A stretch of DNA of 31,661 nucleotides, from IMG/VR virus record IMGVR_UViG_3300016484_000355; one strand, written 5' to 3'. The first letter of the stretch is position 1; every line of letters begins with the position of its first letter. Source of the stretch: a virus. The translations under genes were made by a program, and so were the position numbers. Below, in pieces: positions 8,903-26,972 of the stretch. The notes beneath the pieces were generated by a model, which had not been told where the DNA came from, did not search any database, and saw only the letters and a list, made by a program, of their open reading frames with translations.

Positions 8903-9152
8903 AATTACCAATCCCCATAAGGTAGAGCATCGTAAGCTAGGCAGAGAGCAGGCTTGGGGGATTGCTTGGACCACACAAAACAAGATAAGCATCGATCCTA
9001 GTCTTACTGGGTATCGTTATCTGCTTTATCTACTCCATGAGCACTTTCACTTAAAGCATCCAGATTGGTCGGAGACAAAAGTCAGAAAGGAATCATCAAA
9101 GACTGCCCGGTTCCTTTGGCAGATGGGCTTTAGGCTAACCGAGTTAAAATAG
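8892..9152 (+). CDS. Small HExxH-motif protein, 86 aa (putative zinc metallopeptidase)
   Basis: LLHEHFHLKH motif. I prefer the ATG at 8892 (MPPKIT...) over the track start at 8802, which overlaps the previous ORF by 100 nt. Confidence 0.5.
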   Translation: MPPKITNPHKVEHRKLGREQAWGIAWTTQNKISIDPSLTGYRYLLYLLHEHFHLKHPDWSETKVRKESSKTARFLWQMGFRLTELK

Positions 9153-9443
9153 GTTGCCAATAATGTAAATATAAAGGCATTTGTCTTTTAGTTGCTCCCT
9201 AGTAGCCTCTGGCCATTTCTCCTTAGCAAAATTCCATAAATTCCATTTCTCGTTTTTAGGAATTACCTCAATAGGTATCATAGTCTTATAGCAATCCATT
9301 AAGCACTCATTAATAACACTAGAGGTAGTGCCTAAGTTAACTAAAGCTAAGAATGTGGTCTCAGATTCTCTAGCAGCTTTTAAGGCTGGCTGGAGTACCT
9401 CATAACCTATCATCTTCCGTATATCGTATGAATGCGACTGCAT
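9144..9443 (-). CDS. Hypothetical protein, 99 aa (alternative start at 9413)
   Basis: Last gene of the leftward block. Its 3' end overlaps the convergent + strand gene by 9 nt. Confidence 0.5.
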   Translation of the reverse strand: MQSHSYDIRKMIGYEVLQPALKAARESETTFLALVNLGTTSSVINECLMDCYKTMIPIEVIPKNEKWNLWNFAKEKWPEATREQLKDKCLYIYIIGNLF

Positions 9444-9501
9444 AGCCTACAATAAAGCCTGAAATAAAGGTTACAAGTACAAAGATTCCTGATTGTATCA
9501 T
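9400..9501 (-). CDS. Unlisted 33-aa single-TMD micro-ORF (MIQSGIFVLVTFISGFIVGYAVAFIRYTEDDRL)
   Basis: ATGA overlap with the stop of the upstream gene 9498-10016. Hydrophobic helix followed by a charged tail. Below the track size cut-off. Confidence 0.4.
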   Translation of the reverse strand: MIQSGIFVLVTFISGFIVGYAVAFIRYTEDDRL

Positions 9502-10016
9502 AGTTGAGATTTTAGCCATGTAAAGTTTCTACCCTCTCTTATTAACCAATCAAAGGTCCACTGAACACACGCACATCTACACTTTTGGTTGTCATCCCCA
9601 TAAGCAGCTCTTAATATACTGACATCCTCTTTATCAAACCTTTTGAGCATTTTATTTTCTTTTAGGTAATCGTACCATTTGTGCATCTCATTAAAGGGTA
9701 TCTTCTCAAAGTTTAATCTATACATCATAAGCTCATAGTCCAGTTTCTCTAGGTCTGTCTCTGGTACTTTAGCCTCTTGGATAACTCTATACCCAGAGTC
9801 AGTCTTTTGCAAATTATGTCTGTCTTTGTTGTTATTTGCCCATCTAGCTAGTCTCCTACCTATATCCCAAGTCTTTTCTTGTTCAAATCTCATCTTGGTA
9901 TTTGATTTGTTAGGCTCTGACCAATAATCGTAAAACTCTTGTTTCATTGACTCTGTAAAGGCAAAGGGTTGTAGTTCCCTCTTAAAGTCTGCTGCTCTTG
10001 CTTCTATTGATTTCAT
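9498..10016 (-). CDS. Hypothetical early protein, 172 aa
   Basis: Long ORF in the leftward block. No confident motif. Confidence 0.6.
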   Translation of the reverse strand: MKSIEARAADFKRELQPFAFTESMKQEFYDYWSEPNKSNTKMRFEQEKTWDIGRRLARWANNNKDRHNLQKTDSGYRVIQEAKVPETDLEKLDYELMMYRLNFEKIPFNEMHKWYDYLKENKMLKRFDKEDVSILRAAYGDDNQKCRCACVQWTFDWLIREGRNFTWLKSQL

Positions 10017-10326
10017 AGTGTCTAGATATATCCCCTCTATATCCGGTCAAGTACTTGGGAAAGGTTTTGAGACCTTTTTGCAAATAATTGAACAGAGTAA
10101 AGAGAATTATTAAAAAACCGTTTTGTTTAACTTTTGGCATTCTCTTTCACACAGAACCCATACATTCCTCGGCATCCGTAGGCCGGTTATCACGCATTTT
10201 TCACTTGACCGTCAAGAGTTGTCAGGGGTCGACATTGCTCTCACTTGATTGCGTTACGTATTTATATGATCTGTGAGGTTATTATTTGTGCAGCCATTTG
10301 CACTGGGTAAAACCTCGGTAAAAACC

Positions 10327-10377
10327 AAAAAAATAACCTGCAGAGGATTGGCGAACGCGGCCGCACCCCTACAGGTT
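10327..10377 (-). terminator. Intrinsic terminator within the leftward operon
   Basis: The minus-strand RNA forms a 12-bp stem (AACCUGUAGGGG / CCUCUGCAGGUU, including 2 G-U pairs) followed by AUUUUUUU. On the plus strand the same two positions would be C-A mismatches. The loop is large (19 nt, contains GCGGCCGC). Confidence 0.55.
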
Positions 10378-10448
10378 AGTATATCTTTCTTAAACAAAGC
10401 AGCAAATTGCTGGCGTTCCTTTGTCATGGCGAATATACGAAAAAAATA

Positions 10449-10874
10449 TTAAACTGCCAAATTTATTTTACCTAAATGGTCTAAAAATAGTATTTCCTTA
10501 TAAGATTTGACTCTGGTCATCCTCATAGATATATCCAAATCACTAGCTATGTCTATGACTTTCAAATAGTAAGGAAAGAATTTAGGGTCCTCTTGCTCGA
10601 TGTAACTCTCTATTCTACTTCTATAAGTACTCATGGTAGAGTGGTCTTTATACCCTACTAAAGGAGCTATTTCGGTAAGTTTCAAAGGGCAATGGCGATA
10701 GATAAAATAAGATAAGGCCATACGAATCTCTGCGATCCTCACGATGTTACCATCTTTATCCTTACAGACCTTAAAATGATTGCGACCATTTAGACTCTGT
10801 AATTGCTTTAATGTTATACCATAAAAATCACAGGTTGCTTGGACTAGTTGTATTGCTTGTTCTCTGGTGTTCAT
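10449..10874 (-). CDS. DnaA domain-IV-like helix-turn-helix protein, 141 aa (replication initiation or regulator)
   Basis: RIAEIRMALSYFIYRHCPLKLTEIAPLVGYKDHSTMSTY resembles the DnaA C-terminal DNA-binding domain. Confidence 0.6.
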   Translation of the reverse strand: MNTREQAIQLVQATCDFYGITLKQLQSLNGRNHFKVCKDKDGNIVRIAEIRMALSYFIYRHCPLKLTEIAPLVGYKDHSTMSTYRSRIESYIEQEDPKFFPYYLKVIDIASDLDISMRMTRVKSYKEILFLDHLGKINLAV

Positions 10875-11065
10875 TTGCTCAGTTTATACGCTGCGTAAGT
10901 CTTGTTATTTTCTGTTATGTAATTAGTCCAGATAGTATGCCCCTGGCTTCTAAGATCAGAGATTCTAGCAGCTAATCTAAAGCAGCCAAATTTTTTAAGA
11001 GCATCGATAGCAGTTAACTGTTTACCCGATTGTAAATAAATCAGGATGCGCTGTGTTTGTGTCAT
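10871..11065 (-). CDS. Small winged-helix DNA-binding protein, 64 aa (HTH_39-like)
   Basis: LTAIDALKKFGCFRLAARISDLRSQGHTI pattern. Confidence 0.5.
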   Translation of the reverse strand: MTQTQRILIYLQSGKQLTAIDALKKFGCFRLAARISDLRSQGHTIWTNYITENNKTYAAYKLSK

Positions 11066-11283
11066 CTTTCTTTAATTTTAGGGTTATAAATGTGGGTTAG
11101 TTTCTCAAAGGTATAGTCAAAACCATGTCTGGATAGTTTGTCGCATACCCATTGTAACTCATCCTCTGTGTGATGGATTGCGTGCTGTGGGAATAAAGTA
11201 GTTCTAATGATAGGGTCTTTTTTACTTAGTATGCCTATATATTGATTTCCCCACTTAAAACGGTAAGTCGTTACTAGGTGCAT
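11062..11283 (-). CDS. Hypothetical protein, 73 aa
   Basis: ORF with overlapping start and stop in the operon. Confidence 0.5.
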   Translation of the reverse strand: MHLVTTYRFKWGNQYIGILSKKDPIIRTTLFPQHAIHHTEDELQWVCDKLSRHGFDYTFEKLTHIYNPKIKER

Positions 11284-11689
11284 CTTTAGTAGTTTTTAGT
11301 AGTGTGGTGTATAAAGTAATGATGTCCTCTAGGTCAGCTCGATCCCATTTGTGTACTTTGTTTCTATTATTTTCTAGCCATTCTACTCTTTTCTTACCAA
11401 TCTTTAAGAGTAGATGTTTGCGGTAACCTATAAGATGGAACTCATCAAATCCGTTGCAACGTTGACATTCGCCATTGACATTGTCCTCATGGAACCTAAG
11501 AAAGGACCCTCCCTTGACTGGAACATAGTGCCCAGCATTCATAGACTCAATAGGAAAGGTCTTAAAGCAAGAGATACAAGTAAAGTAACCATCTTTAGAG
11601 TCTCTGGACCTAATCCAAGCATTAAAGACCTTTTGGGCTTTCTCGGTCAGTTTGGGTAGGGTTACTGCTTTTTTTGCTTTCTTTCTCAT
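11255..11689 (-). CDS. ninG: NinG/Rap-like recombination endonuclease, 144 aa
   Basis: FNAWIRSRD...CISC...AGHY...LRF.E.NV..EC.RCN...YR..L..KIGKKRVEWLE matches the lambda NinG family pattern. Confidence 0.65.
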   Translation of the reverse strand: MRKKAKKAVTLPKLTEKAQKVFNAWIRSRDSKDGYFTCISCFKTFPIESMNAGHYVPVKGGSFLRFHEDNVNGECQRCNGFDEFHLIGYRKHLLLKIGKKRVEWLENNRNKVHKWDRADLEDIITLYTTLLKTTKDAPSNDLPF

Positions 11690-12051
11690 AAGTTAAGTTC
11701 GGCTTTCTTATAGCTTACAATAGACCTAATAGCATCTAACTGATGGGTAGCAGAGGCATTGATCCTATCAGCCCAGTTGACTAAGTAGTTAATCTCTTTA
11801 GCATTTGAGCTAACGAACTTAGTAATGAGGGATGGGCTGAGCTTTTTATCTAAGCCATCTTCCATAGCTTGTAGGAGTCCGGCATTGATTAAACCATCTT
11901 GCTGGAATTTAGTCTCTGCCAATAGCTGACCAGACTTGGCAACCATTATCATTAAAAACTCTATCCTCTCTAAAAGCTCGGCTGGCTCTTGACCAACCGG
12001 GCTTTCCAGATAGGCTTGCATCTTACCAAGGGAGGTCTTTATCGTTGTCAT
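11686..12051 (-). CDS. Hypothetical protein, 121 aa (start moved to the Met at 12051)
   Basis: The track start at 12081 overlaps the upstream gene more deeply. The internal ATG gives MTTIKTSLGK. Confidence 0.5.
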   Translation of the reverse strand: MTTIKTSLGKMQAYLESPVGQEPAELLERIEFLMIMVAKSGQLLAETKFQQDGLINAGLLQAMEDGLDKKLSPSLITKFVSSNAKEINYLVNWADRINASATHQLDAIRSIVSYKKAELNL

Positions 12052-12280
12052 TCTTAGGTTTGTAAGTGTCAACAGATACATTTAGTCCAGTTCCATCCTT
12101 TCTTTCCATTAAGGTCAGTCTGAGCTGCTTGATGCCTTTGTAATCATTTAGGAGGTCTGGATTAGCCTTTAACCAATCAAATAGCTCGCTGGGACTGATA
12201 ATGATTTGACCTTTAATAAAAGACGGTGCATTTTCTTTGGGTCCGAATACTCGGACACCTTTTGGGTAAATTGTCATCAT
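12023..12280 (-). CDS. Small protein, 85 aa, with an SSB-like acidic C-terminal tip (possible ssDNA-binding protein)
   Basis: The C-terminus DNDKDLPW resembles the acidic aromatic SSB tip (DDDIPF type). It lies in the recombination/replication neighbourhood. Confidence 0.35.
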   Translation of the reverse strand: MMTIYPKGVRVFGPKENAPSFIKGQIIISPSELFDWLKANPDLLNDYKGIKQLRLTLMERKDGTGLNVSVDTYKPKNDNDKDLPW

Positions 12281-12747
12281 TTTAGATTTACGGTTATAGA
12301 TGTTGTGGATGTCTTAACTGGGGGATAAAGGACAATAACCTCATCCTCTATCAAAAGCTCTGTGCCTGGCTGGACTGCTTTTAGAAAGGCTTGCCGATCC
12401 TTAACTTTCTTTTCTAATTCTGCCAGCTCCTCGGCCAGTCTGTTATAAATAGGGTCTCCACAATTAGAGTAGTCATATTTGACTCCCATCTCTTTGACCT
12501 CAAATTTAGCATTGTGCATTTCAAAGGACTTACCATACTTAGCGGCCTCATCTAAGGTCAAGTCTTTGTAGTCTGGATGGCTGGTTATCTGTTTTATCAG
12601 GTCCTCCATACATTTTACCTGAAGATGTACTTTTAAGGGGTCAGAGAGGCCCTCTTTTAGGTTATTTACTACAGATTGGGCAAAGTCCTGTCTTTCGGCT
12701 TTAGTGGTCTCAAATAGGCTTAAATCGGTTGTGGTAGCAAGTTTCAT
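12277..12747 (-). CDS. Hypothetical protein, 156 aa
   Basis: ORF with ATGA-type coupling. No motif recognised. Confidence 0.55.
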   Translation of the reverse strand: MKLATTTDLSLFETTKAERQDFAQSVVNNLKEGLSDPLKVHLQVKCMEDLIKQITSHPDYKDLTLDEAAKYGKSFEMHNAKFEVKEMGVKYDYSNCGDPIYNRLAEELAELEKKVKDRQAFLKAVQPGTELLIEDEVIVLYPPVKTSTTSITVNLK

Positions 12748-13427
12748 TTTACTGACTTTTTAAGGTGTTTATTGATGTCTTTTTGTGATGGGTTTACTAT
12801 CTGATCTATGGGTTTCTTACGGACCTCTAATCGATAAAGGATTTTCTGGTAGGTCTTATAGTCATTGCAGGCATTGATTGCATCGGTAGCCATTTGTGCT
12901 TCTGAATCGGTCATGTCGGTTTGCCCGATAAGAGCAAGGAGTAAAAGTTTCTCGTCATGTGTTGGGGCATCTTCTACTGGCTTACTAAAGTCCATCTCCT
13001 CGGCAGGTGTAGCCTCAAAGCCAGCAGCCTTCATAAGCCAAGAAATTAAATTCCTAAAGGCCTTTCCGGTGGCTCTGGTTTGTGCCATAGAGAGGATGGC
13101 ATACTCATCCCAAGCTCGTTTATTGGCCTCTTTGTTAGAGCAGATAGCCACTCCCTTAGAGATGACCTCATTAGTGCCCCATTTACAAATACTAACCTCT
13201 GCCAAGTATTTAATCTCGGTTTCGGTAGAATGATTAGAGATGTAATTAAGCTGAGGGTAGAGACCTAACTGGGCTCCAGCCCACTGCCAAGATTCAACTA
13301 AGGGATATTCTTTTCCCTTAATGTTGACAGTAAGTTTTTGCTCTTTTACAAATCGTTTTAGTTCGGAGGCTAATTGCAGTGATTGTGCTGGCTTAGCCAA
13401 ATCATAAATAATTAAATCGGTTGACAT
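12744..13427 (-). CDS. Hypothetical protein, 227 aa (possible single-strand annealing protein, by context only)
   Basis: Long ORF upstream of the SSB-like and NinG-like genes. No diagnostic motif recognised. Confidence 0.5.
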   Translation of the reverse strand: MSTDLIIYDLAKPAQSLQLASELKRFVKEQKLTVNIKGKEYPLVESWQWAGAQLGLYPQLNYISNHSTETEIKYLAEVSICKWGTNEVISKGVAICSNKEANKRAWDEYAILSMAQTRATGKAFRNLISWLMKAAGFEATPAEEMDFSKPVEDAPTHDEKLLLLALIGQTDMTDSEAQMATDAINACNDYKTYQKILYRLEVRKKPIDQIVNPSQKDINKHLKKSVK

Positions 13428-13447
13428 GATGTGGGTTTTTATTAAAG

Positions 13448-13729
13448 TTAAACTGTTTCAGCGAACATTGCTCCCATTGAGTTAGGATTCTGGTCGTTTT
13501 TATTAATGAATAAAGGGAGGGGAAACTTGCGTTCAAATTCTTTGGCTGGTATTTTCTCATCATCTACAAGATAATAACCTTGGCCATCTGGGTCAATACG
13601 GAAAGGGGTGTATTGTCTGATGTACTTGTTGCGGACATACTCTGCTGCTGTCATACGGAAATAGTTGTGAATTGCTGTGATCCATTCATTGTAATCACGC
13701 ATGGGGTGTGTGGGGTAAGTGGTTTTCAT
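13448..13729 (-). CDS. Hypothetical protein, 93 aa
   Basis: ORF directly downstream of the terminator at 13747-13778. Confidence 0.55.
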   Translation of the reverse strand: MKTTYPTHPMRDYNEWITAIHNYFRMTAAEYVRNKYIRQYTPFRIDPDGQGYYLVDDEKIPAKEFERKFPLPLFINKNDQNPNSMGAMFAETV

Positions 13730-13746
13730 GTGTTGAATTTAAGGGT

Positions 13747-13778
13747 AAAAAAATGCCCCCAGTATAGAAATACCGGGG
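13747..13778 (-). terminator. Intrinsic terminator after the first leftward gene(s)
   Basis: The minus-strand RNA forms CCCCGGUAU-uucu-AUACUGGGG (9 bp, one G-U pair) followed by GCAUUUUUUU. On the plus strand that position is an A-C mismatch. Confidence 0.65.
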
Positions 13779-13791
13779 TTGTCTGCTTGCT

Positions 13792-14061
13792 TTAATCGAA
13801 TTGCATCTTCATAATATCATCAGCCTTATATTGAGTAGGCTTATAGGCTATGTCTATAATTTTTTCGGTAGTATTCATTCCTAACTGAATACCATAATGA
13901 AACAATTTGAGCATAGTGATACCCAAATCATCGTGATTAAAAGATATTCTGACCTCATATAAGCCAGAAGGGTCGGGGATTAGTTCCACAGTAAATCCAT
14001 CGGCTTTGGATTGTAGGAACATTGCTCTGTCGGCATTAAGAAAAAGTACAATGGTTTTCAT
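13792..14061 (-). CDS. Hypothetical immediate-early protein, 89 aa (ATG start at 14061; the track start at 14085 is TTG)
   Basis: First sizeable ORF after the leftward promoter, isolated from the rest of the operon by a terminator. Confidence 0.55.
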   Translation of the reverse strand: MKTIVLFLNADRAMFLQSKADGFTVELIPDPSGLYEVRISFNHDDLGITMLKLFHYGIQLGMNTTEKIIDIAYKPTQYKADDIMKMQFD

Positions 14062-14075
14062 AAAGGGTGTTTTAA

Positions 14076-14159
14076 TTATTGGCAAATGTTGTCTTGTAAA
14101 AGGCCTATAACATAGGCTACTGCTAATAAGGCAAGTAAAAGTTTGATTGGTGCTTTCAT
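14076..14159 (-). CDS. Unlisted 27-aa hydrophobic micro-ORF (MKAPIKLLLALLAVAYVIGLLQDNICQ)
   Basis: ATG about 45 nt downstream of the predicted leftward transcription start. Signal-peptide or TMD-like. Below the track cut-off. Confidence 0.3.
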   Translation of the reverse strand: MKAPIKLLLALLAVAYVIGLLQDNICQ

Positions 14160-14210
14160 GGTTTAATCATTTGGTTATGGATGCAAGATAACACACTTTT
14201 ACACATTAAC

Positions 14211-14218
14211 CAAAAATA
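14211..14218 (-). promoter_or_regulatory. Leftward early promoter -7 box (TATTTTTG on the minus strand)
   Basis: Matches TAnnTTTG. It lies in the divergent intergenic region and overlaps the palindrome AAAAATATTTTT (14212-14223). Confidence 0.45.
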
Positions 14219-14241
14219 TTTTTAATTTATTTTTATTGCCC

Positions 14242-14249
14242 TATATTTG
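14242..14249 (+). promoter_or_regulatory. Rightward promoter -7 box TATATTTG
   Basis: Matches TAnnTTTG and ends 4 nt before the ATG at 14254. Same CCCT(T)ATATTTGT context as the box at 18195. Confidence 0.5.
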
Positions 14250-14253
14250 TGGA

Positions 14254-14484
14254 ATGGAAAAGCAGAAAAGAGGTAGGAAACCAAAGCCTGCACATCTGAA
14301 AGTGCAAATGGTAACAGCCTACATAACAAAAGAGCAGAAAGACCTGATAAACAAAGAGTTCGGTAATCTTACTAATGCTGTAAAAATTCACATTTTAAGC
14401 AAATTCAATGGACATCGTGATAGCTTTGGGCACTGGCAGCCGGTGGATGGACAACGAGCTGAGGTATGCCCTAAGATCGATTGA
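14254..14484 (+). CDS. Small basic DNA-binding protein, 76 aa (ribbon-helix-helix-like regulator)
   Basis: KRGRKPKP...KVQMVTAYITKEQKDLINKEFG.LTNAVKIHIL pattern. The ATG at 14254 is preferred over the TTG at 14236. The 3' end overlaps the next gene by 77 nt. Confidence 0.45.
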   Translation: MEKQKRGRKPKPAHLKVQMVTAYITKEQKDLINKEFGNLTNAVKIHILSKFNGHRDSFGHWQPVDGQRAEVCPKID

Positions 14485-15097
14485 GTCGTATCTTAAAGGG
14501 CACTCTGGCCGCATTCTACTAATAGGCGAAAAGCCTAAATGGATAAAGAATGTGGACTACTACGACATCCCAGATAAGCCAGGCCGCAAGAACTTTAGCA
14601 TCTTTCAAAAGATTCTGACTGGGTGCGAGATGTGTAATGGGGATGACTTTATCTTCTGGAATGATGACCACTTCTTACTTAAAGACCTAAAAGTTACAGA
14701 CTTTAAGTATTGGTATGATGGCACTACCGTACAATATTTTCAAAGGGCTGTCGGACTCTATAAGAAGGCTGTTGCAAATACAATGATCCTACCTAAAGTC
14801 AATGACCTTTATACCGATATTCATGTGCCCATCGTTTACAATAAGCATGAATTCGCTAAGCTCATAGACCTTGACTGGAGTAGAGAGTATGTAATCAAAA
14901 CAGCTTACACTCGGACACAGGATGGTGGCTTTGAGTACATGGCAGACCTTAAACTAAATCAGCAGTACAGCCTAAATCAATGGTATGGCAAGCTCCATGC
15001 CCGAACATTTTTTAGTATCGGCTCCTATGCGGTCAATGCTGACTTTAAGATACTCATGGAGAAACTATACCCCAGAAAATCACAATACGAAAAATGA
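14408..15097 (+). CDS. Stealth-like (CR2/CR3-type) sugar-1-phosphate transferase, 229 aa
   Basis: NELRYALRSIE...ILLIGEKPKWI...FIFWNDDHFLL...DIHVPIVYNK resembles the Stealth conserved regions. Confidence 0.5.
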   Translation: MDIVIALGTGSRWMDNELRYALRSIESYLKGHSGRILLIGEKPKWIKNVDYYDIPDKPGRKNFSIFQKILTGCEMCNGDDFIFWNDDHFLLKDLKVTDFKYWYDGTTVQYFQRAVGLYKKAVANTMILPKVNDLYTDIHVPIVYNKHEFAKLIDLDWSREYVIKTAYTRTQDGGFEYMADLKLNQQYSLNQWYGKLHARTFFSIGSYAVNADFKILMEKLYPRKSQYEK

Positions 15098-16065
15098 GAA
15101 TCTTTATCCAAAGCCCAAACATCAATAGCCGACATGGAGGCATCAGAGTCATCAATGAGTGGGCTAACAGGTTACAAGGCTTTGGGCATAAGGTTATTCT
15201 TTACAACCAAGCCGGTCCAGTTAGATGCGACTGGATGACTATAACTTGTAAGATTGTAAATACCACTAATTTACTGGCAAACTCTGATCTGTTAATAGTA
15301 ACAAGCCCACATGGGGCAAGTCTATTAAGTAAAGACAAACCTTATAAGAAAGTTGTCTTTTTGCAGATGTTGGAGCATCTCTTTAACATAACCAATAAGG
15401 CATTTTTTGATAGCTGCTTTACTTTATACTCTACCAAATATCCTCTTATCTCTATAAGTCAGTGGAATATCAGGATTCTACAAAATAACTATAAAAGAAC
15501 AGGACCGACATTTTATGTAGGTAATGGAGTTAATCTTAATGATTTCCCGATTAGTAACAAACCTAAAGATGGTAAAGTAGCCCTATTAGAATCTCCAGAG
15601 CCAACTAACATGGCTAAAGACACAGAAAAGATAGCGGTACAAGTAGCCAAGAATCTAAAAGAAAAGGGATGGATAATTAAGGGATTTGGATTACAAAAAG
15701 CAAAAGACAATATCTATACTGAGTATGTAGTCAAGCCAGACATTGACACAATGAATCGGCTCTACGAGGAGGCAACAATAATGATTAAGGCCACAAAGTT
15801 TGATGCGAGGTCAACTGCCCCTTTAGAAGCTGGCACAAAGGGCACTGTAACGATTAGAGGAATTATAAAGGGAGATGATGACCTTAACGAGACTAATAGC
15901 TTTAAGACTGGCTATTCCTATGACAAGATATTTGACTCGACAATGTTTGCTTTACACCATCCCGACCAATTACAAGAAAGAGCTAATAATATTCGCAATC
16001 ACGTACAAACCTACACTTGGGATTATTGGATGACTAAAATCAATGACATCTTATGCAACTTATAG
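15094..16065 (+). CDS. GT-B fold glycosyltransferase (GT4-like), 323 aa
   Basis: N-terminus MRIFIQSPNINSRHGGIRVINEWANRLQGFGHKVILY, and C-terminal ARSTAPLEAGTKGTVTI in the position of the EAM-x-G-x-PV motif. Confidence 0.6.
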   Translation: MRIFIQSPNINSRHGGIRVINEWANRLQGFGHKVILYNQAGPVRCDWMTITCKIVNTTNLLANSDLLIVTSPHGASLLSKDKPYKKVVFLQMLEHLFNITNKAFFDSCFTLYSTKYPLISISQWNIRILQNNYKRTGPTFYVGNGVNLNDFPISNKPKDGKVALLESPEPTNMAKDTEKIAVQVAKNLKEKGWIIKGFGLQKAKDNIYTEYVVKPDIDTMNRLYEEATIMIKATKFDARSTAPLEAGTKGTVTIRGIIKGDDDLNETNSFKTGYSYDKIFDSTMFALHHPDQLQERANNIRNHVQTYTWDYWMTKINDILCNL

Positions 16066-16493
16066 TTGGATGCGGTCCGAACTGGCCTAAAAGAGAGAAT
16101 GACATTTTCTTAGATTGTCGCAAGTTTGACAACGTAGATGTAGTGCATGACCTAAATAAGACACCTTGGCCATTCAAAGATGACCAGATGACTGAGATAG
16201 CAGCTATTCATGTGGTAGAGCATCTAAATAGCTTATTGGACTTTATGAATGAGAGCTGGAGAATACTTAAAAAGGGTGGAGCTTTATACATAGAAACTCC
16301 AGAAGCCGGGGCAAATGTTGACCTCCAGTTTGCCGATCCTACACACATAAGATGTTATCGGAAGCATACCTTTATAAATTACTTTACCTTATCTGAGGCC
16401 CCTAAGTTTGGCTACACAGACAAATACTGGGCTATAATGCACTTAGAAACTAAAGATGGCAATATAATCGCACACCTAACACCATTAAAATGA
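16053..16493 (+). CDS. Class I SAM-dependent methyltransferase, 146 aa
   Basis: Motif I VGCGPN, plus IHVVEHL...ESWRILKKGGALYIETP (Methyltransf_11-like). Confidence 0.7.
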   Translation: MQLIVGCGPNWPKRENDIFLDCRKFDNVDVVHDLNKTPWPFKDDQMTEIAAIHVVEHLNSLLDFMNESWRILKKGGALYIETPEAGANVDLQFADPTHIRCYRKHTFINYFTLSEAPKFGYTDKYWAIMHLETKDGNIIAHLTPLK

Positions 16494-17098
16494 GAATACT
16501 AATAGTAGTTTTAGAGTATTTAGAGCCCGATTGGTTGCAGACCTTAAAGTGTGTGCAAGACACTGGCCTACCTTATGAGCTTGTAAGTAGAGATGGAGTA
16601 GGTAATATGTCAAGGGCTTACAATTCTATCATCAATAAAGAAGCCGATTATTATTGGTTTGTCTCAAATGTTACCTTTAGCCCTCAGATGCCTTATATGC
16701 TGGCAATGGCTTGCGAGGAGAAGGGCTGGGCTGCCATACATCCGGCAATGAGGTCATCAGATCATAAATTTCAATGGCCTAATGGTAACGAACCTAAAGA
16801 GACACCCTTTATAGAATGGACTGCCCCTATGGTCAATGCAGAAATATTTAGGGATAACCTCTTAGATGAGATGCTACCTTACTACTACATGGACTTGGAT
16901 TGGTGTCATAGGGTAAAGCCCAAAAACGTCGGAGTCCATCATGGTCAGGTAGTAGAGCATACATATTTAAGAAATAAGCAAGAGCATCCCATCGGACAAC
17001 TAAGAAAGCAATTAAGGAACTACTGGACCCCAATAAGCCAAAGACACATGGTTCAGAAATGGGGTAAAGATTGGCAACATAAACTTTGGCCTAAATAA
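16490..17098 (+). CDS. GT-A-like glycosyltransferase, 202 aa (tentative)
   Basis: MRILIVVLEY...RDGVGNMSRAYNSII...YYWFVSNVTF...AAIHPA resembles GT2-type enzymes. ATGA coupling to the upstream gene. Confidence 0.4.
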   Translation: MRILIVVLEYLEPDWLQTLKCVQDTGLPYELVSRDGVGNMSRAYNSIINKEADYYWFVSNVTFSPQMPYMLAMACEEKGWAAIHPAMRSSDHKFQWPNGNEPKETPFIEWTAPMVNAEIFRDNLLDEMLPYYYMDLDWCHRVKPKNVGVHHGQVVEHTYLRNKQEHPIGQLRKQLRNYWTPISQRHMVQKWGKDWQHKLWPK

Positions 17099-17103
17099 AA
17101 ACT

Positions 17104-17724
17104 ATGACAACTTTAGAACTACATGGAATTTACCACGAATTAAACTTTTGGCAAGGCTTTGTAAAGACCGACCGATTCTTAAAGGGTTGGGTAGGTAAGG
17201 GCAAGACCCCAGAATTAAACCAAGAGGTAGCAGACTTTATCAAAAGTGTTCCACATGAAACAGTCTTAGATGTCGGGTCCGGTGTCTGCTCAATCCTTAA
17301 TGGGTTGGTCAATGTAACTCCTTGCGACCCTTTAGGAGACCTCTACAAGCTGGTCTTTAACTTTGAGAGACACAAACTAAAAGCCCCACTACCCATCCCA
17401 GCCGAGGAGTTAAACTTTAAGAATGAGTTTGACATAGTACACATCTCAAATGCCTTAGACCACACCCAAGAACCCAGAAAGGCTTTAGATTACCTTTTAC
17501 AAGCGGTCAAGCCAGGAGGGTATCTAATAGTGCAAGGCTTTTTCAATGAGGCCACACATGAGAACTGGCAAGGCTTCCATCAGTGGGATATATCTTTAGA
17601 TGACTATGGCTGCATGGTTATTTTAGGCAAAAACTCCCAAACTATTATAGCTTGGCCTGCTCATAAATTCTCTACGGTCAACCTACTGGGCAGAGATTGG
17701 TATTATTGGATCATAAAAAAGTAA
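17104..17724 (+). CDS. Class I SAM-dependent methyltransferase, 206 aa
   Basis: Motif I VLDVGSGVCS, plus DIVHISNALDHTQEP...LLQAVKPGGYLIV. Confidence 0.7.
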   Translation: MTTLELHGIYHELNFWQGFVKTDRFLKGWVGKGKTPELNQEVADFIKSVPHETVLDVGSGVCSILNGLVNVTPCDPLGDLYKLVFNFERHKLKAPLPIPAEELNFKNEFDIVHISNALDHTQEPRKALDYLLQAVKPGGYLIVQGFFNEATHENWQGFHQWDISLDDYGCMVILGKNSQTIIAWPAHKFSTVNLLGRDWYYWIIKK

Positions 17725-17726
17725 GT

Positions 17727-18164
17727 ATGGTAATTTGCTGCGATATAGATGGATGCTTAACAGATGGCAAGATTTGGGTTGACCACAAAGGAAACATCAT
17801 TAAGTCATTCAATAACAAGGACATTGGAGCCATAAAAGAGCTAATCTCTATGGGCTATCAGGTCCATTTAGTAACTGCCTCCTCTTGGCCGGGTGCAGAA
17901 CAATATCTTAAAAGGTCTGGGGCTGAATTACACATAATACGAAATAAAGAGACCATTCATTTTGACTATCAAATAGCAATAGGAGACTCAGCATGGGATA
18001 TACCTATGCTTTGTAAGGCAAAACACTTATTCTGCCCATCAGATGCCTCGTTAGAGGTTAAGTGTCTGGATGGGGTGCATCCACTACAAACTCCCGGTGG
18101 GCAAGGCATAATGCTGGAACTAATACGCATTTTGTCAAATTGGGAACTGTCAAGTAATCCTTGA
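17727..18164 (+). CDS. HAD-superfamily phosphatase, KdsC-like (8- or 9-carbon sugar-acid phosphate phosphatase family), 145 aa
   Basis: CCDIDGCLTDGKIWVDHKGNIIKSFNNKDIGAIKEL...IAIGDSAWDIPML...FCPSDA matches the KdsC pattern. The ATG at 17727 is preferred over the TTG at 17697. Confidence 0.7.
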   Translation: MVICCDIDGCLTDGKIWVDHKGNIIKSFNNKDIGAIKELISMGYQVHLVTASSWPGAEQYLKRSGAELHIIRNKETIHFDYQIAIGDSAWDIPMLCKAKHLFCPSDASLEVKCLDGVHPLQTPGGQGIMLELIRILSNWELSSNP

Positions 18165-18194: not shown

Positions 18195-18202
18195 TATATT
18201 TG
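18195..18202 (+). promoter_or_regulatory. Late-operon promoter -7 box TATATTTG
   Basis: Matches TAnnTTTG in the 133-nt gap after the KdsC-like gene. It is followed by the perfect palindrome CTAAATATTTAG (18211-18222). Confidence 0.45.
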
Positions 18203-18259
18203 TCTAAGTGCTAAATATTTAGTATATTAGGGGGTGAATAAAGGGTAAAAAAATCAACG

Positions 18260-18292
18260 AGCCTTCAGTCCTTCGGGATTGAGGGCTTTTTT
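18260..18292 (+). terminator. Intrinsic terminator with a UUCG tetraloop
   Basis: The stem pairs GCCUUCAGUCC with GGAUUGAGGGC (11 bp, including 2 G-U pairs), followed by T6. A7 on the upstream side makes it potentially bidirectional. Confidence 0.7.
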
Positions 18293-18297
18293 ACATT

Positions 18298-18438
18298 ATG
18301 CCTTACAAATCAAGAGCCCAAGCAGCCTTCTTTAACATTAACAATAAAAAGCTCGAAAAGCAAGGAGTCAACGTAGAGGAGTGGAATAAGGCCTCTAAAG
18401 GCAAAAAACTACCTAAAAGACCCAAGAAGAAGAAGTAA
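18298..18438 (+). CDS. Unlisted 46-aa basic protein (MPYKSRAQAAFF...KKLPKRPKKKK), DUF3008-like
   Basis: ATG at 18298. The stop overlaps the TerS start (TAATG). The N-terminal MP-x-KS-x-AQ motif is seen in small phage proteins. Confidence 0.5.
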   Translation: MPYKSRAQAAFFNINNKKLEKQGVNVEEWNKASKGKKLPKRPKKKK

Positions 18439-19944: not shown

Positions 19945-21690
19945 ATGGGCAGAATACAAGATGCGTGGAATGCGTTAACAAAGAAGGCAGTGCCGATGAT
20001 GCCGGTAGGTCAGCCCTTTGCTTCCTATCAGGTAACTGGAGGCACTTTTGTCGGTATTACTGACAACCGTACTAACTACATCCGGGATGGCTACCAAGTT
20101 AATGACATTCTTTATTCTACAATAACTCTAATAACTGATAAGGTAAAGTTGCCTGAATGGTCAACTTACAAGGTGGTCGATGAGGCTGCCTTTAAATCTT
20201 ATCAGGGATTGATGAGAAAAAAAGACATCTCTACTGAGGACTTCCAAAAGGCAATGGGCTATAAGAAAAAAGCCTTAGAGCCTATCTATGTTGACAGACT
20301 TACAGAGCTTTTAAGATACCCTAATGACTATGAGACCTTTCAGGATTTAGTAGCCAACTCAACCGGGTGGAAGCTAATCACTGGAGGTCGCTGTGTTTGG
20401 GCTCAGATGCTCGACATGGGAGCCAATCAGGGTAAACCATACCAACTGCACAACTTACCTTACCAAGAGGTATCTATCATAGCTTCGACCAATCTGTTCC
20501 CTATCGTTGAGGAAGGGTACATGATTCCGGTCCTTTCTAATGCCTTATTCCCTAAGAGTCAGGTCTTACATGATAAATACCAGAACTATGACTGGGATGT
20601 TAATGGAGCCCATCTGTACGGAATGAGCCCACTTAAAGCTGCCCTGAGAAGGTTAAGCAGAAGCAACTCGGCCATCAAAGCCAGTGCCGCTATGTTAGAG
20701 AACCAAGGGGTAAAAGGTGTGCTATATGTCGATGACCCAAGAGTTATCGGTGGAGGGGTAGATGTAGCTGATACAAGAAAACAAGTAGAAGCTATTAAGA
20801 GTAAACTCGTAGGCAAAGGAGAATGGGTAGGATCAGAGAACTGGGGCCGCATTGGTGTCTCTGGTTATAAGATGGGATGGCAGTCTGTTGGGCTTAACCC
20901 AGTAGAGCTATCCATTATAGACTCTGAGAAATGGGATTTGAAGCGGTTTGCATCCGTTTATGGAGTGCCTTCTCAGTTGGTAGGAGATAGCGAGAGTTCG
21001 ACATATAACAATGTTAGAGAGGCTGAGAAGGCCCTTACGACTCGCTGTGCCATGCCAGCTCTGGTTTCATTTAGGAACCACTTTAATCGTAAACTACAAA
21101 CAGACTGGGGATATAAAGGTCAGAATGTCTATATCGACTTTGACCATACGGTATTTACTGAACTCCAAGAGGATGTAGTCGAGAAGTCAAGCTGGATTAA
21201 GGACCTCAAAGCCCTTAGCCCGAACGAGCAAAGAATGCACTTAGGCCTTGAAAGAATAGACAATCCTCTGTTTGATGAGCCTTGGATAACTACACAAGAT
21301 GGAATGCCATTAAGTGAGTACGAGACTCCAAACATGGACATCCCAGATAGTACCGATTTACCAAAGTCTTTTAAGTCAGAAGGCGAGAAAGTATCATTTG
21401 ACTATGATGGTGTCTTATCTACTGCTAAGGGTAAAGAGGAGGCTATGAGTGAGATTGAGGATGGATCAACAGTTTATATCATCTCTGCTCGGTCCGACAA
21501 GGAAGGAATGTTAAAGACTGCTAAAGACTTAGGCATCCCAGCTTCAAGAGTGTATGCCACTGGCTCTAACAAGGCAAAGGTGCAAAAGATAAAGGATTTA
21601 GGAATATACAAGCACTATGACAATAATCAAGATGTCATTGATGCTTTGCAAGATACAGAAACAGAAGGAGAGCTGTTTAATGACGATTGA
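19945..21690 (+). CDS. Portal protein, 581 aa, with a C-terminal HAD-like phosphatase domain (residues about 483-581)
   Basis: Position after TerL and size fit a portal. Portal-like region GVPSQLVGDSESSTYNNVREAEKAL. The C-terminus has HAD motifs FDYDGVL, IISARS, K-rich, and YDNNQD. Confidence 0.8.
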   Translation: MGRIQDAWNALTKKAVPMMPVGQPFASYQVTGGTFVGITDNRTNYIRDGYQVNDILYSTITLITDKVKLPEWSTYKVVDEAAFKSYQGLMRKKDISTEDFQKAMGYKKKALEPIYVDRLTELLRYPNDYETFQDLVANSTGWKLITGGRCVWAQMLDMGANQGKPYQLHNLPYQEVSIIASTNLFPIVEEGYMIPVLSNALFPKSQVLHDKYQNYDWDVNGAHLYGMSPLKAALRRLSRSNSAIKASAAMLENQGVKGVLYVDDPRVIGGGVDVADTRKQVEAIKSKLVGKGEWVGSENWGRIGVSGYKMGWQSVGLNPVELSIIDSEKWDLKRFASVYGVPSQLVGDSESSTYNNVREAEKALTTRCAMPALVSFRNHFNRKLQTDWGYKGQNVYIDFDHTVFTELQEDVVEKSSWIKDLKALSPNEQRMHLGLERIDNPLFDEPWITTQDGMPLSEYETPNMDIPDSTDLPKSFKSEGEKVSFDYDGVLSTAKGKEEAMSEIEDGSTVYIISARSDKEGMLKTAKDLGIPASRVYATGSNKAKVQKIKDLGIYKHYDNNQDVIDALQDTETEGELFNDD

Positions 21691-26546: not shown

Positions 26547-26972
26547 ATGGCAGATGCTACAACAATCTCCGGCAGTGTAATGTTTATCGAATATTCAGAC
26601 ACGCCGAGTAGTGCAAGAAAGTCGGCTGTTTGCCAGAGTGAGGGATCATTCGATGGCAGCCGCAACGTAGTTAGCGATGAGACTAACTGCGGAACTTTGA
26701 AAGTATTAGGACCTCAGAACAACCGTTTCACTCTGAATGCGGTAGTTGACACTGTACCTGATGCTGATGAGGCTTCGTTCAATGATTTCCAAACTCTGTA
26801 TGCCAACAACACTAAAAAGTACTGGCATCTGACAGATTCAGCCGAGACTATCTATCATGGTGGTTATGGTTGGATTTCAGCTCTCGGTCAGCAGAATGTT
26901 AGCGGTCAGACTGCTAAGTTCACAATGACTATCGAGATCGAGGGAGACATTGATACAACACCAGCAAGCTAA
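26547..26972 (+). CDS. Major tail (tube) protein, 141 aa
   Basis: Lies immediately upstream of the chaperone pair and the tape measure. No sheath gene is present. Confidence 0.65.
   Translation: MADATTISGSVMFIEYSDTPSSARKSAVCQSEGSFDGSRNVVSDETNCGTLKVLGPQNNRFTLNAVVDTVPDADEASFNDFQTLYANNTKKYWHLTDSAETIYHGGYGWISALGQQNVSGQTAKFTMTIEIEGDIDTTPAS

Follow-up and report, generated by a model that had tools for sequence, protein, structure and literature searches.

The block at positions 14254-18164 of the window (the whole 31,661-nt stretch that was analysed) is best explained as a self-contained, phage-specific operon for cytoplasmic glycan assembly, whose six soluble enzymes would work on one common substrate. 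That the operon glycosylates virion proteins, possibly through a phosphodiester linkage, we regard as an evenly balanced proposition. The source is a small uncultured Bacteroidota phage with a circularly closed genome of 31.64 kb (22-nt overlap of the ends). The block of 3.9 kb (3911 nt in the first-pass annotation) makes up about 12% of it and holds a small RHH-like ORF and six translationally coupled enzyme genes, p2 to p7, all on the + strand (Table 1). The ORF coordinates, ATGA overlaps at the p2/p3 and p4/p5 junctions, and a conserved flanking promoter box and hairpin support the tight unit originally described. The RHH-like ORF does precede p2 as claimed, but it does not end before it: it runs to 14484, so that its C-terminal tail and p2 share 77 nt. 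The most likely start of p7 is ATG 17727, 2 nt past the p6 stop; TTG 17697 is less likely. All seven proteins have a maximum Kyte-Doolittle hydrophobicity (19 residues) of at most 1.34 and are predicted from their sequences to be soluble.

Table 1. Features of the operon and its surroundings, and the tail tube gene.
Feature	Position	Strand	Size	Basis
Bacteroidota-type -7 promoter box TATATTTG	14242..14249	+		Pattern match; position and sequence conserved in relatives
RHH-like small basic ORF	14254..14484	+	76 aa	Pfam RHH_7 E=0.0033, below cutoff
p2, Stealth-domain protein	14408..15097	+	229 aa	Pfam Stealth_CR2, phrog_7999, family-profile PDB matches
p3, GT-B fold, GT4-like glycosyltransferase	15094..16065	+	323 aa	AF2 model, Foldseek PDB, Pfam domains of homologues
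p4, short class-I SAM methyltransferase	16053..16493	+	146 aa	Pfam Methyltransf_11, Methyltransf_23
p5, GT-A fold glycosyltransferase	16490..17098	+	202 aa	AF2 model, Foldseek PDB, BFVD
p6, class-I SAM methyltransferase	17104..17724	+	206 aa	Pfam Methyltransf_23, Methyltransf_11
p7, small capless HAD phosphatase, KdsC/YrbI (HAD-IIIA) type	17727..18164	+	145 aa	TIGR01670, PDB matches, motifs
Second conserved TAnnTTTG box, between p7 stop and hairpin	18195..18202	+		Pattern match; conserved in relatives
Intrinsic terminator	18259..18294	+		13-bp stem, UUCG loop, T-run
Tail tube protein	26547..26972	+		phrog_1407 E=2e-5

The promoter box ends 5 nt ahead of the first ATG of the operon, a near-leaderless arrangement. 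The TAnnTTTG pattern is not enriched genome-wide (43 matches vs 32 ± 7 expected); in 15 distinct relatives the operon box (TAT[ACG]TTTG) nevertheless keeps its place, ~5 nt ahead of the ATG, while the surrounding intergenic sequence drifts. The hairpin at 18259-18288, the best terminator-like site within 9-24 kb, ends the operon in front of the late genes, and its stem is kept in relatives with compensatory substitutions. Both signals of the first-pass annotation are thus upheld. Conservation of the RHH-like ORF, a candidate ribbon-helix-helix regulator, extends over its first ~50 residues only and holds in every relative, L138 included; tail length ranges from 67 to 76 aa.

The six enzyme classes proposed at first reading (Stealth, two glycosyltransferases, two methyltransferases and a KdsC-like HAD phosphatase) are all correct by profile searches, AF2/Foldseek and PDB comparison, and the motifs quoted for them are present in the translations. 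Alone, p2 scores 22.1 bits against Pfam Stealth_CR2 (E=1.8e-4; curated cutoff 39.4), matches phrog_7999 with E=1e-21, and has no reported match to the Pfam CR1, CR3 or CR4 models. Its family profile retrieves the GNPTAB catalytic domain (7s6n, E=1.3e-11; 7dxi, 1.4e-9) and CpsY (8j2n, E=1e-5), and two family members pass the gathering score of Stealth_CR2 (P0385, 44.0 bits; P0441, 42.8 bits). Residues E17, R23, D86, D87, D137, H139 and P141 are invariant in the family. For p7, the match to TIGR01670 (E=3.8e-15) reaches 56 bits where the cutoff is 107; its best PDB sequence matches are H. influenzae KdsC (1j8d, E=6e-10) and a Bacteroides KDN-9-P phosphatase (3e81), and it carries the motifs DIDGCLTDG and GDSAWD. 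Because both window proteins alone score below the curated cutoffs, only family profiles and PDB matches make the Stealth and KdsC assignments secure, and the two labels hold as superfamily-level resemblance but not as equivalog membership. We predict that p2 is a sugar-1-phosphate transferase. It belongs to a large, previously undescribed phage family of about 1,400 clusters at 50% identity (E≤1e-30), with a phage-like context in every case examined; some mycobacteriophages with the annotation Fionnbharthvirus have a distant homologue immediately upstream of their terminase. We found no link between Stealth proteins and phages in the literature, in line with the earlier statement that the combination was not known as a described phage module.

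The AF2 model of p3 (pLDDT 96.7) gave as best Foldseek PDB matches SPS (6kih), MshA (3c4q), BshA (6d9t/3mbo), ManT (7qsg), PimA and PglA (TMq about 0.8, E about 1e-12), and PF13439, PF13524 or PF13692 is found in some p3 homologues. That of p5 (pLDDT 94.6) is closest to ppGalNAc-T (8ujf), AvpGT (9jn3), TarP (6h4m) and RmlT (E about 1e-7, TMq 0.6-0.65), and many phage and giant-virus GT-A proteins were matched in BFVD. p5 is without a canonical DxD, having N60-V-T at the usual site. Both methyltransferases score at or above the Pfam cutoffs, p6 with 34.4 bits for each of Methyltransf_23 and Methyltransf_11, and p4 with 28.6 bits for Methyltransf_11 (cutoff 21.2) and 27.0 for Methyltransf_23 (cutoff 27). 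p4 is present in L132, L133, L135, L137 and others but missing from the sister clade (L031-L046), and is therefore accessory or dispensable.

The module adjoins terS/terL in every close relative (MCP identity of 86% or more) whose upstream DNA extends far enough. The same six families also occur together, with the gene order rearranged, in divergent Bacteroidota phages and prophages (contigs L132, L133, L135, L136, L137, L168-L172, L176, L186, L196 and L198), and several are fused to one another or to further transferases: p3+p5 (P0191, P0211), p5+p6 (L132) and p2+GT2/GT11 (P0449, P0385, P0409, L142). This recurrence and the fusions point to one pathway and not to host cargo. The HAD phosphatase is a conserved partner, and in L136 a sulfotransferase takes the p7 position. 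A scan of GTDB representatives gave only 10 matches; six have packaging or capsid genes that could be detected and a phage-like context, and the others are too short or uninformative. Neither there nor in the other contexts examined was a homologue found in a bona fide cellular polysaccharide locus. A host locus simply carried as cargo is ruled out, since every homologue context examined is phage or prophage.

We then surveyed the neighbourhoods of 39 p2 sequence clusters in fetched flanks. Where packaging or capsid genes are detectable, most loci have p2 or the module immediately beside terS/terL or behind the capsid gene: the spacing is 30 nt to terS in L217, 61 nt past terL in L212, and 37 nt (L147) or 418 nt (L207-L210) past the MCP gene, and in L137 the module lies between the MuF gene and the remaining head genes. 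For 12 of the 39 clusters no packaging gene was detected within the flanks. The adjacency is only suggestive, as accessory genes are known to accumulate near terS. The capsid proteins of p2-bearing phages frequently end in Ser (13 of 17 distinct sequences, from lineages that are not fully independent), compared with a base rate of 12% for other ORFs of the same loci; at the 50% level, eight of 11 capsid clusters have at least one Ser-ending member and seven are uniformly Ser-ending. The control set is tiny: a detectably related capsid was found in just two isolates, and these capsids end differently (Flavobacterium phage 11b, ...FTAV; Cellulophaga phi10:1, ...FTAA); neither isolate gave a tblastn match to p2. 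The pattern fails for the capsid of the present lineage, which ends in ...DFGNV in the window and in ...YGSF in most close relatives. The tail tube protein of the window ends in ...DIDTTPAS, and all 54 relatives share the ending ...DT[TEQ]P[ATQ]S; we infer only that this protein is a candidate glycan acceptor.

Our favoured reading, virion glycosylation, takes the enzyme classes of p2, p3, p5, p4 and p6 from the assignments above, and from them we infer the chemistry, order, donors and acceptor. p2 would transfer sugar-1-phosphate from a host UDP-sugar to an acceptor hydroxyl, leaving the first sugar phosphodiester-linked. The chain would be lengthened by p3, probably a retaining enzyme, and p5 using host nucleotide sugars, and its sugars O-methylated with SAM by p6 and, in this clade, p4. 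p7 may hydrolyse a phosphomonoester on a precursor or on the glycan under construction; this step is the least clear, and the model accounts poorly for what the HAD phosphatase does. The RHH-like protein may regulate the operon. The acceptor would most likely be a virion structural protein from the same cytoplasm, the tail tube and/or the capsid, with attachment probably at an exposed C-terminal Ser/Thr. Progeny particles would then bear a methylated glycan coat. The packaging and capsid adjacency in many lineages, the universality of the module in a lineage in which no integrase was detected, and the soluble enzymes favour this reading over rewriting of the host surface.

The latter nevertheless stays alive as a possible, if rather unlikely, alternative because the module has its own host-type promoter and terminator. 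A strong terminator separates the operon from the late genes, and this promoter-to-terminator layout is also that of a moron or host-directed cassette. Here the enzymes would act at the inner membrane face on Und-P-linked precursors of LPS, O-antigen or capsule, or on other surface glycans, and a sugar-phosphate branch, more sugars and methyl groups would mask the receptor. The result would be superinfection exclusion and fewer progeny lost on debris, and serotype conversion in temperate relatives. Such relatives exist: an integrase is encoded in L133, and L049/L140 represents a Paraflavitalea prophage. Envelope glycans are the classical substrates of cellular Stealth proteins (capsule polymerases, CpsY) and of the GT4/GT2 fold matches WaaG, PglA, TarP and TarS, and KdsC-like phosphatases serve the LPS/Kdo and nonulosonic-acid pathways. 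However, surface conversion pays mainly in lysogens, and neither an integrase nor a repressor was detected in this phage, where the module is universal in the lineage. In agreement with the first-pass annotation, genome profile scans gave no match to a nucleotide-sugar synthase, flippase, polymerase, integrase or base-hydroxymethylase, and the module contains no membrane-anchored component, flippase or Gtr-type protein. The failure to find a homologue in a cellular polysaccharide locus among the contexts examined and the repeated insertion in head-gene blocks (L137, L145-L147, L207-L210), unusual for host-directed cargo, also speak against it.

A GT4 and HAD pair is the classic synthase/phosphatase route to soluble glycosides, as in sucrose-P synthase/phosphatase, MshA and glucosylglycerate, and mycobacterial polymethylated polysaccharides are a model for extension and O-methylation. 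It is conceivable, though improbable, that the operon likewise produces a small, methylated glycoside or oligosaccharide, or a sugar phosphate, with a metabolic, protective or anti-defence role in the infected cell: the substrate of a GT4 synthase would be a phosphorylated acceptor, the HAD phosphatase would come next, and the product would then be extended and O-methylated. The conserved phosphatase would thereby gain a natural role, the glycosyltransferases are accompanied by two methyltransferases, and the structures nearest to p3 are those of small-molecule GT4 enzymes with phospho-acceptors or small acids (SPS, MshA, BshA), with the methylmannose-polysaccharide mannosyltransferase 7qsg also among the matches. 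The fold ranking is not discriminating, however, as PimA, PglA and WaaG score similarly. The Stealth enzyme with its GT2/GT11 fusions and the positional coupling to capsid and packaging genes are left unexplained, and the product has no known phage benefit, with no PADLOC or anti-defence signal found.

DNA hypermodification, by which the phage bases would be glycosylated and methylated against restriction, is very improbable and, as first judged, the weakest of the three original options: glycans on 5-hydroxymethylated bases are known products of phage GT-B and GT-A enzymes (Pyle 2024, as summarized in PMC12619734), T4 alpha-glucosyltransferase (1y6f) stands at rank 37 of the p3 fold matches and terS-adjacent genes are often DNA-modification genes, but Pfam and PHROGs scans of the genome, where a few ORFs remain without annotation, gave no dNMP hydroxymethylase, dNTP-pool enzyme, DNA polymerase or base-exchange enzyme, so that DNA offers no hydroxyl acceptor, and p4 and p6 are Methyltransf_11/23-type small-molecule or O-methyltransferases, not DNA methyltransferases.

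Compared with the Stealth family (GNPTAB, bacterial capsule hexose-1-phosphate polymerases and M. tuberculosis CpsY), p2 aligns to the solved catalytic domains in CR1 (ELRYaLRS), CR2 (NDDhF) and CR3 (D-x-H-x-P), but it is a bare core of ~229 aa without spacer, Notch, DMAP or polymerase-associated domains, from a family that is phage-associated wherever examined. p7 shares HAD motifs I-IV and the small capless size with the Kdo-8-P (KdsC/YrbI) and KDN-9-P phosphatases, yet occurs in a phage without a KdsA/NeuB-type synthase or cytidylyltransferase partner; this, the sub-cutoff score and the sulfotransferase in L136 suggest that its substrate is probably other than that of KdsC. As in GtrABC and prophage TarP serotype conversion, phage-borne glycosyltransferases of the module would alter a glycan, and TarP is among the p5 fold matches, whereas the Gtr proteins reside in the membrane and use Und-P sugars in lysogens and the module proteins are predicted to be soluble, with no lysogeny genes detected. 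Chlorovirus PBCV-1 has an A064R-type multidomain GT-GT-methyltransferase enzyme and methylated glycans on its capsid protein; it is a eukaryotic giant virus with N-linked glycans and is not known to have a Stealth or HAD component. The likeness, at the level of fold class only (3oy2 among the p3 matches), lies in virus-encoded cytoplasmic glycosyl- and methyltransferases that are physically coupled, as in the p5+p6 and p3+p5 fusions. A precedent for the favoured reading exists in mycobacteriophages, where operons of glycosyltransferases and an O-methyltransferase glycosylate the C-termini of capsid and tail-tube proteins (Freeman 2023, as cited in PMC11600133, PMC12363180 and PMC12619734); examples in these accounts are Che8 gp108-110, and Corndog and cluster O with an O-methyltransferase and three tandem glycosyltransferases (Freeman et al. 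2023). They resemble the module in combining phage-encoded soluble glycosyltransferases and an O-methyltransferase in one operon that uses host precursors. The module, which is in Bacteroidota phages and has a putative role in virion modification, adds a Stealth-type enzyme and a HAD phosphatase, for which the mycobacteriophage operons have no reported counterpart. p3 and p5 found nothing by tblastn in 50,697 phage records and have no detectable homology to Che8 gp108-110 (hhalign probability ≤1.4%). We propose that the module is analogous to, rather than homologous with, the virion glycosylation systems of mycobacteriophages and chloroviruses.

The operon at 14254-18164 is best read as a phage-encoded glycan-modification module. 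It belongs to what is a complete small siphophage genome: an identical 22 nt (CTTATGATGGTCATTCGTTCAA) at both ends of the window shows that the genome closes into a circle of about 31.64 kb, and the ORF for a 781-aa tail protein ends at the circular junction. The + strand encodes packaging and head functions (terS-like, terL, portal, MuF-like, prohead protease, HK97-type capsid protein and connector proteins) as well as tail and lysis functions (a 141-aa tail tube, tape measure, large distal tail proteins, M15 endolysin and metallophosphoesterase). No integrase, DNA polymerase, hydroxymethylase or nucleotide-sugar enzyme was found in the phage genome, which bears out the lack of integrase, base-hydroxymethylase and nucleotide-sugar synthase recorded in the first-pass annotation. 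In phages of Bacteroides, Parabacteroides and Phocaeicola, terL shares ∼40% identity with that of the window. When the GTDB species representatives were scanned with the profile of p2, the Stealth-like protein of the module, 10 matches were obtained, all in Bacteroidota; they fall chiefly in Chitinophagaceae (Sediminibacterium, Paraflavitalea and Ginsengibacter), and Sphingobacterium is also among them. The phage probably infects this group, a likely host being a Chitinophagaceae genus such as Sediminibacterium. Nucleotide searches with the module and with terL-portal against 50,697 phage records gave zero matches, and isolated relatives are absent from that collection. The portal protein has a C-terminal extension of ∼130 aa ('FDYDGVLS ... 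IISARS ... YDNNQD') that recalls a small HAD phosphatase; a HAD-like domain at this DYDG motif was unsupported by Pfam or PDB sequence search.

Coordinates of the module genes, their control elements and other features of the window
Feature	Coordinates	Strand	Assignment
Matching ends	1-22 and 31640-31661		22-nt repeat
Leftward block	9144-14085	leftward	NinG and DnaA-C-like HTH protein
Divergent control region	14086-14253		palindrome and leftward box
27-aa hydrophobic ORF	start near 14160	-	possible ORF
TAnnTTTG box	14242		candidate promoter
First ORF	14254-14484	+	RHH-like, weakly assigned
p2	14408-15097	+	minimal Stealth core (predicted)
p3	15094-16065	+	GT-B glycosyltransferase
p4	16053-16493	+	methyltransferase
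p5	16490-17098	+	GT-A glycosyltransferase
p6	17104-17724	+	methyltransferase
p7	17727-18164	+	small HAD phosphatase; ATG 17727 the most likely start
Second TAnnTTTG box	18195		conserved
Box, conserved element and hairpin	18195-18295		resembles a short transcript unit or small RNA
Hairpin	18259-18288		terminator
46-aa basic ORF	18298-18438		conserved
Portal	19945-21690	+	portal protein
Portal extension	21280-21690	+	C-terminal ∼130 aa
Capsid	23454-24602	+	HK97-type capsid protein
Tail tube	26547-26972	+	tail tube protein
781-aa ORF	from 29323	+	tail protein

All seven ORFs were located as the first-pass annotation had called them, but the end of the first and the start of p7 needed correcting. 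The genes are tightly packed, with ATGA overlaps. The first ORF overlaps p2 by 77 nt, its conservation is confined to the first ∼50 residues and it is only weakly assigned to the RHH proteins (Pfam RHH_7, E=0.003). Hydrophobic segments are absent from all seven proteins (maximum KD19 1.34 or less). The TAnnTTTG box proposed as the promoter (TATATTTG) keeps its place ∼5 nt ahead of the ATG in 15 distinct relatives, although the intergenic sequence around it has diverged. Genome-wide, however, the motif occurs 43 times against 32 +/- 7 expected, an enrichment that is not significant. The promoter call is therefore one of conserved position, to which the count adds nothing, and the short distance to the ATG would imply a near-leaderless operon transcript. 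The proposed terminator proved to be the strongest terminator-like site in 9-24 kb, and its hairpin is kept in relatives with compensatory stem substitutions.

The surroundings of the operon hold further conserved elements. The second TAnnTTTG box lies just past the p7 stop, with the conserved hairpin and a T-run ∼55 nt downstream and a conserved 'GTATATTAGGGGGTGAAT' element between box and hairpin. This layout resembles a short constitutive transcript and terminator before the late genes, or a small RNA, and in its position ahead of late genes it is laid out like the lambda pR'/tR' antitermination control. Rfam gave no match better than E=0.69, and a known structured RNA within or beside the module was rejected. 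The 46-aa basic ORF (MPYKSRAQAAFFNINNKKLEKQGVNVEEWNKASKGKKLPKRPKKKK), directly upstream of terS, survives even in relatives that have a different small gene in place of the hairpin region. On the other side of the operon, the divergent control region contains a conserved AAAAATATTTTT palindrome and a leftward box, and a possible 27-aa hydrophobic ORF (MKAPIKLLLALLAVAYVIGLLQDNICQ) was noted on the minus strand.

By homology, p2 is a minimal Stealth catalytic core and a predicted sugar-1-phosphate transferase, because its family profile matches solved catalytic domains with CR1-CR3 aligned. When tested by itself against the Stealth families of Pfam (PF17101, PF11380, PF17102 and PF17103), the window protein fails the gathering score (Stealth_CR2, 22.1 bits vs 39.4, E=1.8e-4) and no Pfam CR4 match was reported. 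The CR2 cutoff is passed by two relatives (P0385, 44.0 bits; P0441, 42.8 bits), and many homologues carry a precomputed PF11380 match. A 48-member p2 profile matches human GlcNAc-1-phosphotransferase (GNPTAB; 7s6n, E=1.3e-11, query 9-154), 9bgg (E=2e-10), Drosophila GNPT (7dxi, E=1.4e-9) and M. tuberculosis CpsY (8j2n, E=1e-5). The alignment to the solved enzymes covers CR1 (ELRYaLRS/ELRYsLRS), CR2 (NDD) and CR3 (H-x-P), and the C-terminal 'P-x-K-S-x-Y-E' of p2 faces 'P-L-P-S-Q-F-E' of GNPTAB in a sub-threshold stretch (score -1.8). The original Stealth-like call is thus upheld by the family profile, though the single-protein Pfam score stays below the cutoff.

The p2 family is large. An exhaustive profile search returned 1,375 50%-identity clusters at E<=1e-30 and 4,201 at E<=1e-10; nearly all of the 150 best matches are 220-255 aa long, and every inspected context was viral or prophage. 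In larger phages p2 ends bigger glycan clusters located immediately before structural genes, which hold GT11, GT2, GT25, FkbM methyltransferases and an NDP-sugar epimerase/dehydratase-family enzyme and, at the related loci L050/L051, also DegT and FdtA. A distant homologue is found in mycobacteriophages annotated as Fionnbharthvirus, as an unannotated gene just upstream of terminase. This is gene 6 (1279-1965) of Mycobacterium phage Juliette (L001), labelled 'hypothetical protein', with counterparts in 18 other Mycobacterium phages and in Microbacterium phage Cece (tblastn E down to 4e-11; E=3e-29 against the p2 family HMM). Given this similarity, Juliette gene 6 could be annotated as a Stealth-domain protein. 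The first-pass annotation knew of no phage module that joins a Stealth enzyme with two methyltransferases, and the limited library searched yielded no literature linking Stealth proteins to phages.

PDB searches with the single sequences of p2, p3, p4, p5 and p6 were uninformative, and family profiles or predicted structures were required. Both glycosyltransferases called from the sequence were confirmed as confident predicted folds without a sequence-family match. The AF2 model of p3 (pLDDT 96.7, pTM 0.92) has a two-Rossmann-domain GT-B fold, for which Foldseek gave 349 PDB matches at E<=1e-3. The top matches are GT4 enzymes (TMq 0.73-0.81), the nearest folds being sucrose-phosphate synthase, MshA, BshA, PimA and PglA. 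Pfam gave no GT match on window p3, PF13439, PF13524 and PF13692 being found on some homologues only, and the p3 profile matched 7ec7, a group-1 family glycosyltransferase, weakly in the PDB (E=7.5e-4). Instead of the EX7E motif, p3 has a single invariant Glu (E245) at the expected site. The AF2 model of p5 (pLDDT 94.6) adopts a GT-A fold; its top Foldseek matches in the PDB are ppGalNAc-T, AvpGT, TarP, RmlT and TarS (E about 1e-7), those in BFVD are phage and giant-virus GT-A proteins (E down to 2e-9), and window p5 has no Pfam match. After beta-4, where DxD would stand, p5 reads W-F-V-S-N60-V-T-F, with no acidic pair and with N60 invariant in 57 family members. This invariant Asn-x-Thr in place of DxD suggests unusual metal or donor binding. 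Elsewhere in the protein H84, H92 and H157 are invariant in the family.

The two methyltransferases were assigned correctly: p4 and p6 pass Pfam thresholds and are of the class-I SAM type. p6 reaches 34.4 bits with Methyltransf_23 and Methyltransf_11 alike, above the gathering scores, while the values for p4 are 28.6 bits with Methyltransf_11 (cutoff 21.2) and 27.0 with Methyltransf_23 (cutoff 27); the GxGxG-type motif I is present as LDVGSGV and VGCGPN. We infer that they O-methylate sugars. p7 is a small HAD protein closest to KdsC and KDN-9-P phosphatase. The KdsC-like label fits its HAD motifs (DIDGCLTDG, motif I; GDSAWD, motif IV) and closest solved relatives (1j8d, E=6.3e-10; 4nav, 3n1u, 2p9j and 3e81), but not the NCBIfam subfamily cutoff (TIGR01670, 56.2 bits vs 106.95) or the expected pathway, as Pfam, PHROGs and NCBIfam revealed no Kdo-pathway partner (KdsA/NeuB-type synthase or CMP-transferase) in the window.

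Gene content in relatives is strong evidence that the module proteins serve a single pathway with a common substrate, because their co-occurrence survives rearrangement and some are fused. The order RHH-p2-p3-(p4)-p5-p6-p7-terS-terL is kept in ∼45 IMG/VR contigs fetched with p2 plus those fetched with the capsid, and none of the close relatives (capsid identity of 86% or more) with sufficient upstream DNA lacks the module; p4 is missing from a sister clade at about 65% identity. In far more divergent phage and prophage contigs the six families recur together in shuffled order: p2, a p5-p6 fusion, p7, p3 and p4, divergent from terS (L132 and L186); p3-p4-p5-p7-p2 in an integrase-bearing element (L133); p5-p6-p7-p2-p3 with p4 further off (L135); p3-p5-p6-sulfotransferase-p2 (L136); p3-p4-p5-p6-p7-GT2 between the MuF gene and other head genes (L137); and p3-p4-p5-p6-p7-p2 (L196 and L198). 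Fusions join p3 to p5 (proteins P0191 and P0211), p5 to p6 (L132) and p2 to GT2, GT7C-like or GT11 domains (P0449, P0385, P0409 and L142). The gene-order search suggested in the first-pass annotation thus finds the module across Bacteroidota phages and prophages. The idea of a host locus carried as cargo was rejected: among the 10 GTDB matches, those with packaging or capsid genes detectable nearby lie in phage-like surroundings, and the others are in contexts too short or uninformative.

Relatives also carry 0.2-2.1 kb of extra DNA at p5/p6, p6/p7 and p7/terS with the flanking module genes intact; examples of these insertion hot-spots are L015/L016, L035, L043, L005-L007 and L033. In L136, a Chitinophagales MAG contig, a Sulfotransfer_2 protein (10301-10879) lies between the p6 and p2 homologues in the usual place of the HAD phosphatase, which hints that some module variants may sulfate their glycan.

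In 66 loci, which form 39 p2 clusters, most of those with detectable terS/terL or capsid genes have p2 or the module either adjoining terS/terL or placed after the capsid gene, at distances as low as 30-60 nt; with detection from a handful of seeds, 12 of the 39 clusters had no packaging gene detected in the fetched flanks. Capsid proteins of p2-bearing phages tend to end in Ser (13 of 17 distinct proteins, vs 12% of other long ORFs at the same loci), and after clustering at 50% a Ser-ending member occurs at least once in 8 of 11 clusters and uniformly in 7. These tails are often short and Ser/Thr/Glu-rich (...GNSSQS, ...DQDTTES, ...LEPAES, ...FANS), and were noted at L049, L050, L138, L139, L146, L147, L175, L178, L185, L186, L189, L192 and L214. 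The control is a weak one, consisting of only two isolates with a detectably related capsid and no p2 by tblastn, whose capsids end ...FTAV and ...FTAA. The capsid of the window phage itself ends ...DFGNV, without a C-terminal Ser, and such a Ser was rejected as the acceptor in this phage, the pattern belonging to the wider p2-bearing set. The only structural protein of the window phage with a conserved Ser/Thr-rich C-terminus is the tail tube (...DIDTTPAS).

We propose that sugar-1-phosphate transfer would prime a short glycan, that the GT-B and GT-A enzymes would extend it and that O-methylation would follow; the phosphatase p7 would act somewhere in the pathway. Virion proteins are the favoured acceptor, because the module keeps, in many independent lineages, a position coupled to head and packaging genes, is universal in a lineage without detected lysogeny genes and encodes soluble enzymes, because the capsid C-terminal Ser pattern is suggestive, and because there is precedent in mycobacteriophage operons of glycosyltransferase and O-methyltransferase genes, which are reported to glycosylate capsid and tail-tube C-termini (as cited in PMC11600133, PMC12363180 and PMC12619734). 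More tentatively, the ∼235-aa mini-Stealth family may phosphoglycosylate virion proteins, placing sugar-1-phosphate on Ser/Thr, for example at capsid or tail-tube C-termini; the GT-B, GT-A and methyltransferase partners would then extend and cap the phosphodiester-anchored glycan. To our knowledge, protein phosphoglycosylation has so far been essentially a Dictyostelium and Leishmania phenomenon.

Remodelling of the host envelope is a serious, though less likely, alternative to virion glycosylation. A host-type promoter of its own and a strong terminator set the operon apart from the late genes, a promoter-to-terminator layout that is equally that of a host-directed cassette, and some relatives are temperate. 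A soluble glycoside as the product is improbable: the module does contain a GT4 and HAD pair, the textbook synthase/phosphatase route to such compounds, but this would leave the Stealth enzyme and the gene neighbourhood unexplained. DNA glycosylation is unlikely, as initially ranked, because the searches turned up no enzyme that would produce hydroxylated bases. PADLOC gave only two sub-significant methyltransferase matches, and the reading as a known anti-phage defence system was rejected.

Glycosylation of phage particles by the virus's own enzymes is so far known from experiment in no more than a few mycobacteriophages; there the modification blunts antibody recognition. If the module glycosylates virions, glycosylated particles would be a common feature of abundant Bacteroidota phages in freshwater and soil; the trait would have arisen independently, through different enzymes, and may rely on a phosphodiester (Stealth-type) chemistry not known on any phage. 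It would also give a function to a large 'hypothetical' phage protein family (phrog_7999, mycobacteriophage gene 6) and offer structural studies and glyco-engineering a minimal Stealth catalytic core that is compact and soluble. Phosphoglycosylation, if true, would be a new kind of bacteriophage virion modification, widespread in environmental Bacteroidota phages. Were the target the host envelope, 12% of the genome would be spent on rewriting host glycans, which would be unusual for a phage without detected lysogeny genes; the result would matter in that case too.

Set against known systems, p7 resembles KdsC yet misses the subfamily threshold and lacks the KdsC pathway, and p2 belongs to the Stealth superfamily on profile homology, although its own score lies below the curated Pfam threshold. 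Gtr-type cassettes, composed of the GtrA flippase, GtrB and a type-specific Gtr, are membrane-embedded, whereas the module has no Gtr matches and its seven proteins no hydrophobic segment. Comparison with the Che8 mycobacteriophage enzymes gp108-110 revealed no kinship: tblastn of p3 and p5 against INPHARED gave no match, and hhalign of A2 with gp110 and gp109 and of A1 with gp108 returned a probability of 1.4% or less. Judged from its genes, the module would nevertheless work like mycobacteriophage virion glycosylation without homology to it, and in its way of working it would also be like the chlorovirus virion-glycosylation system.
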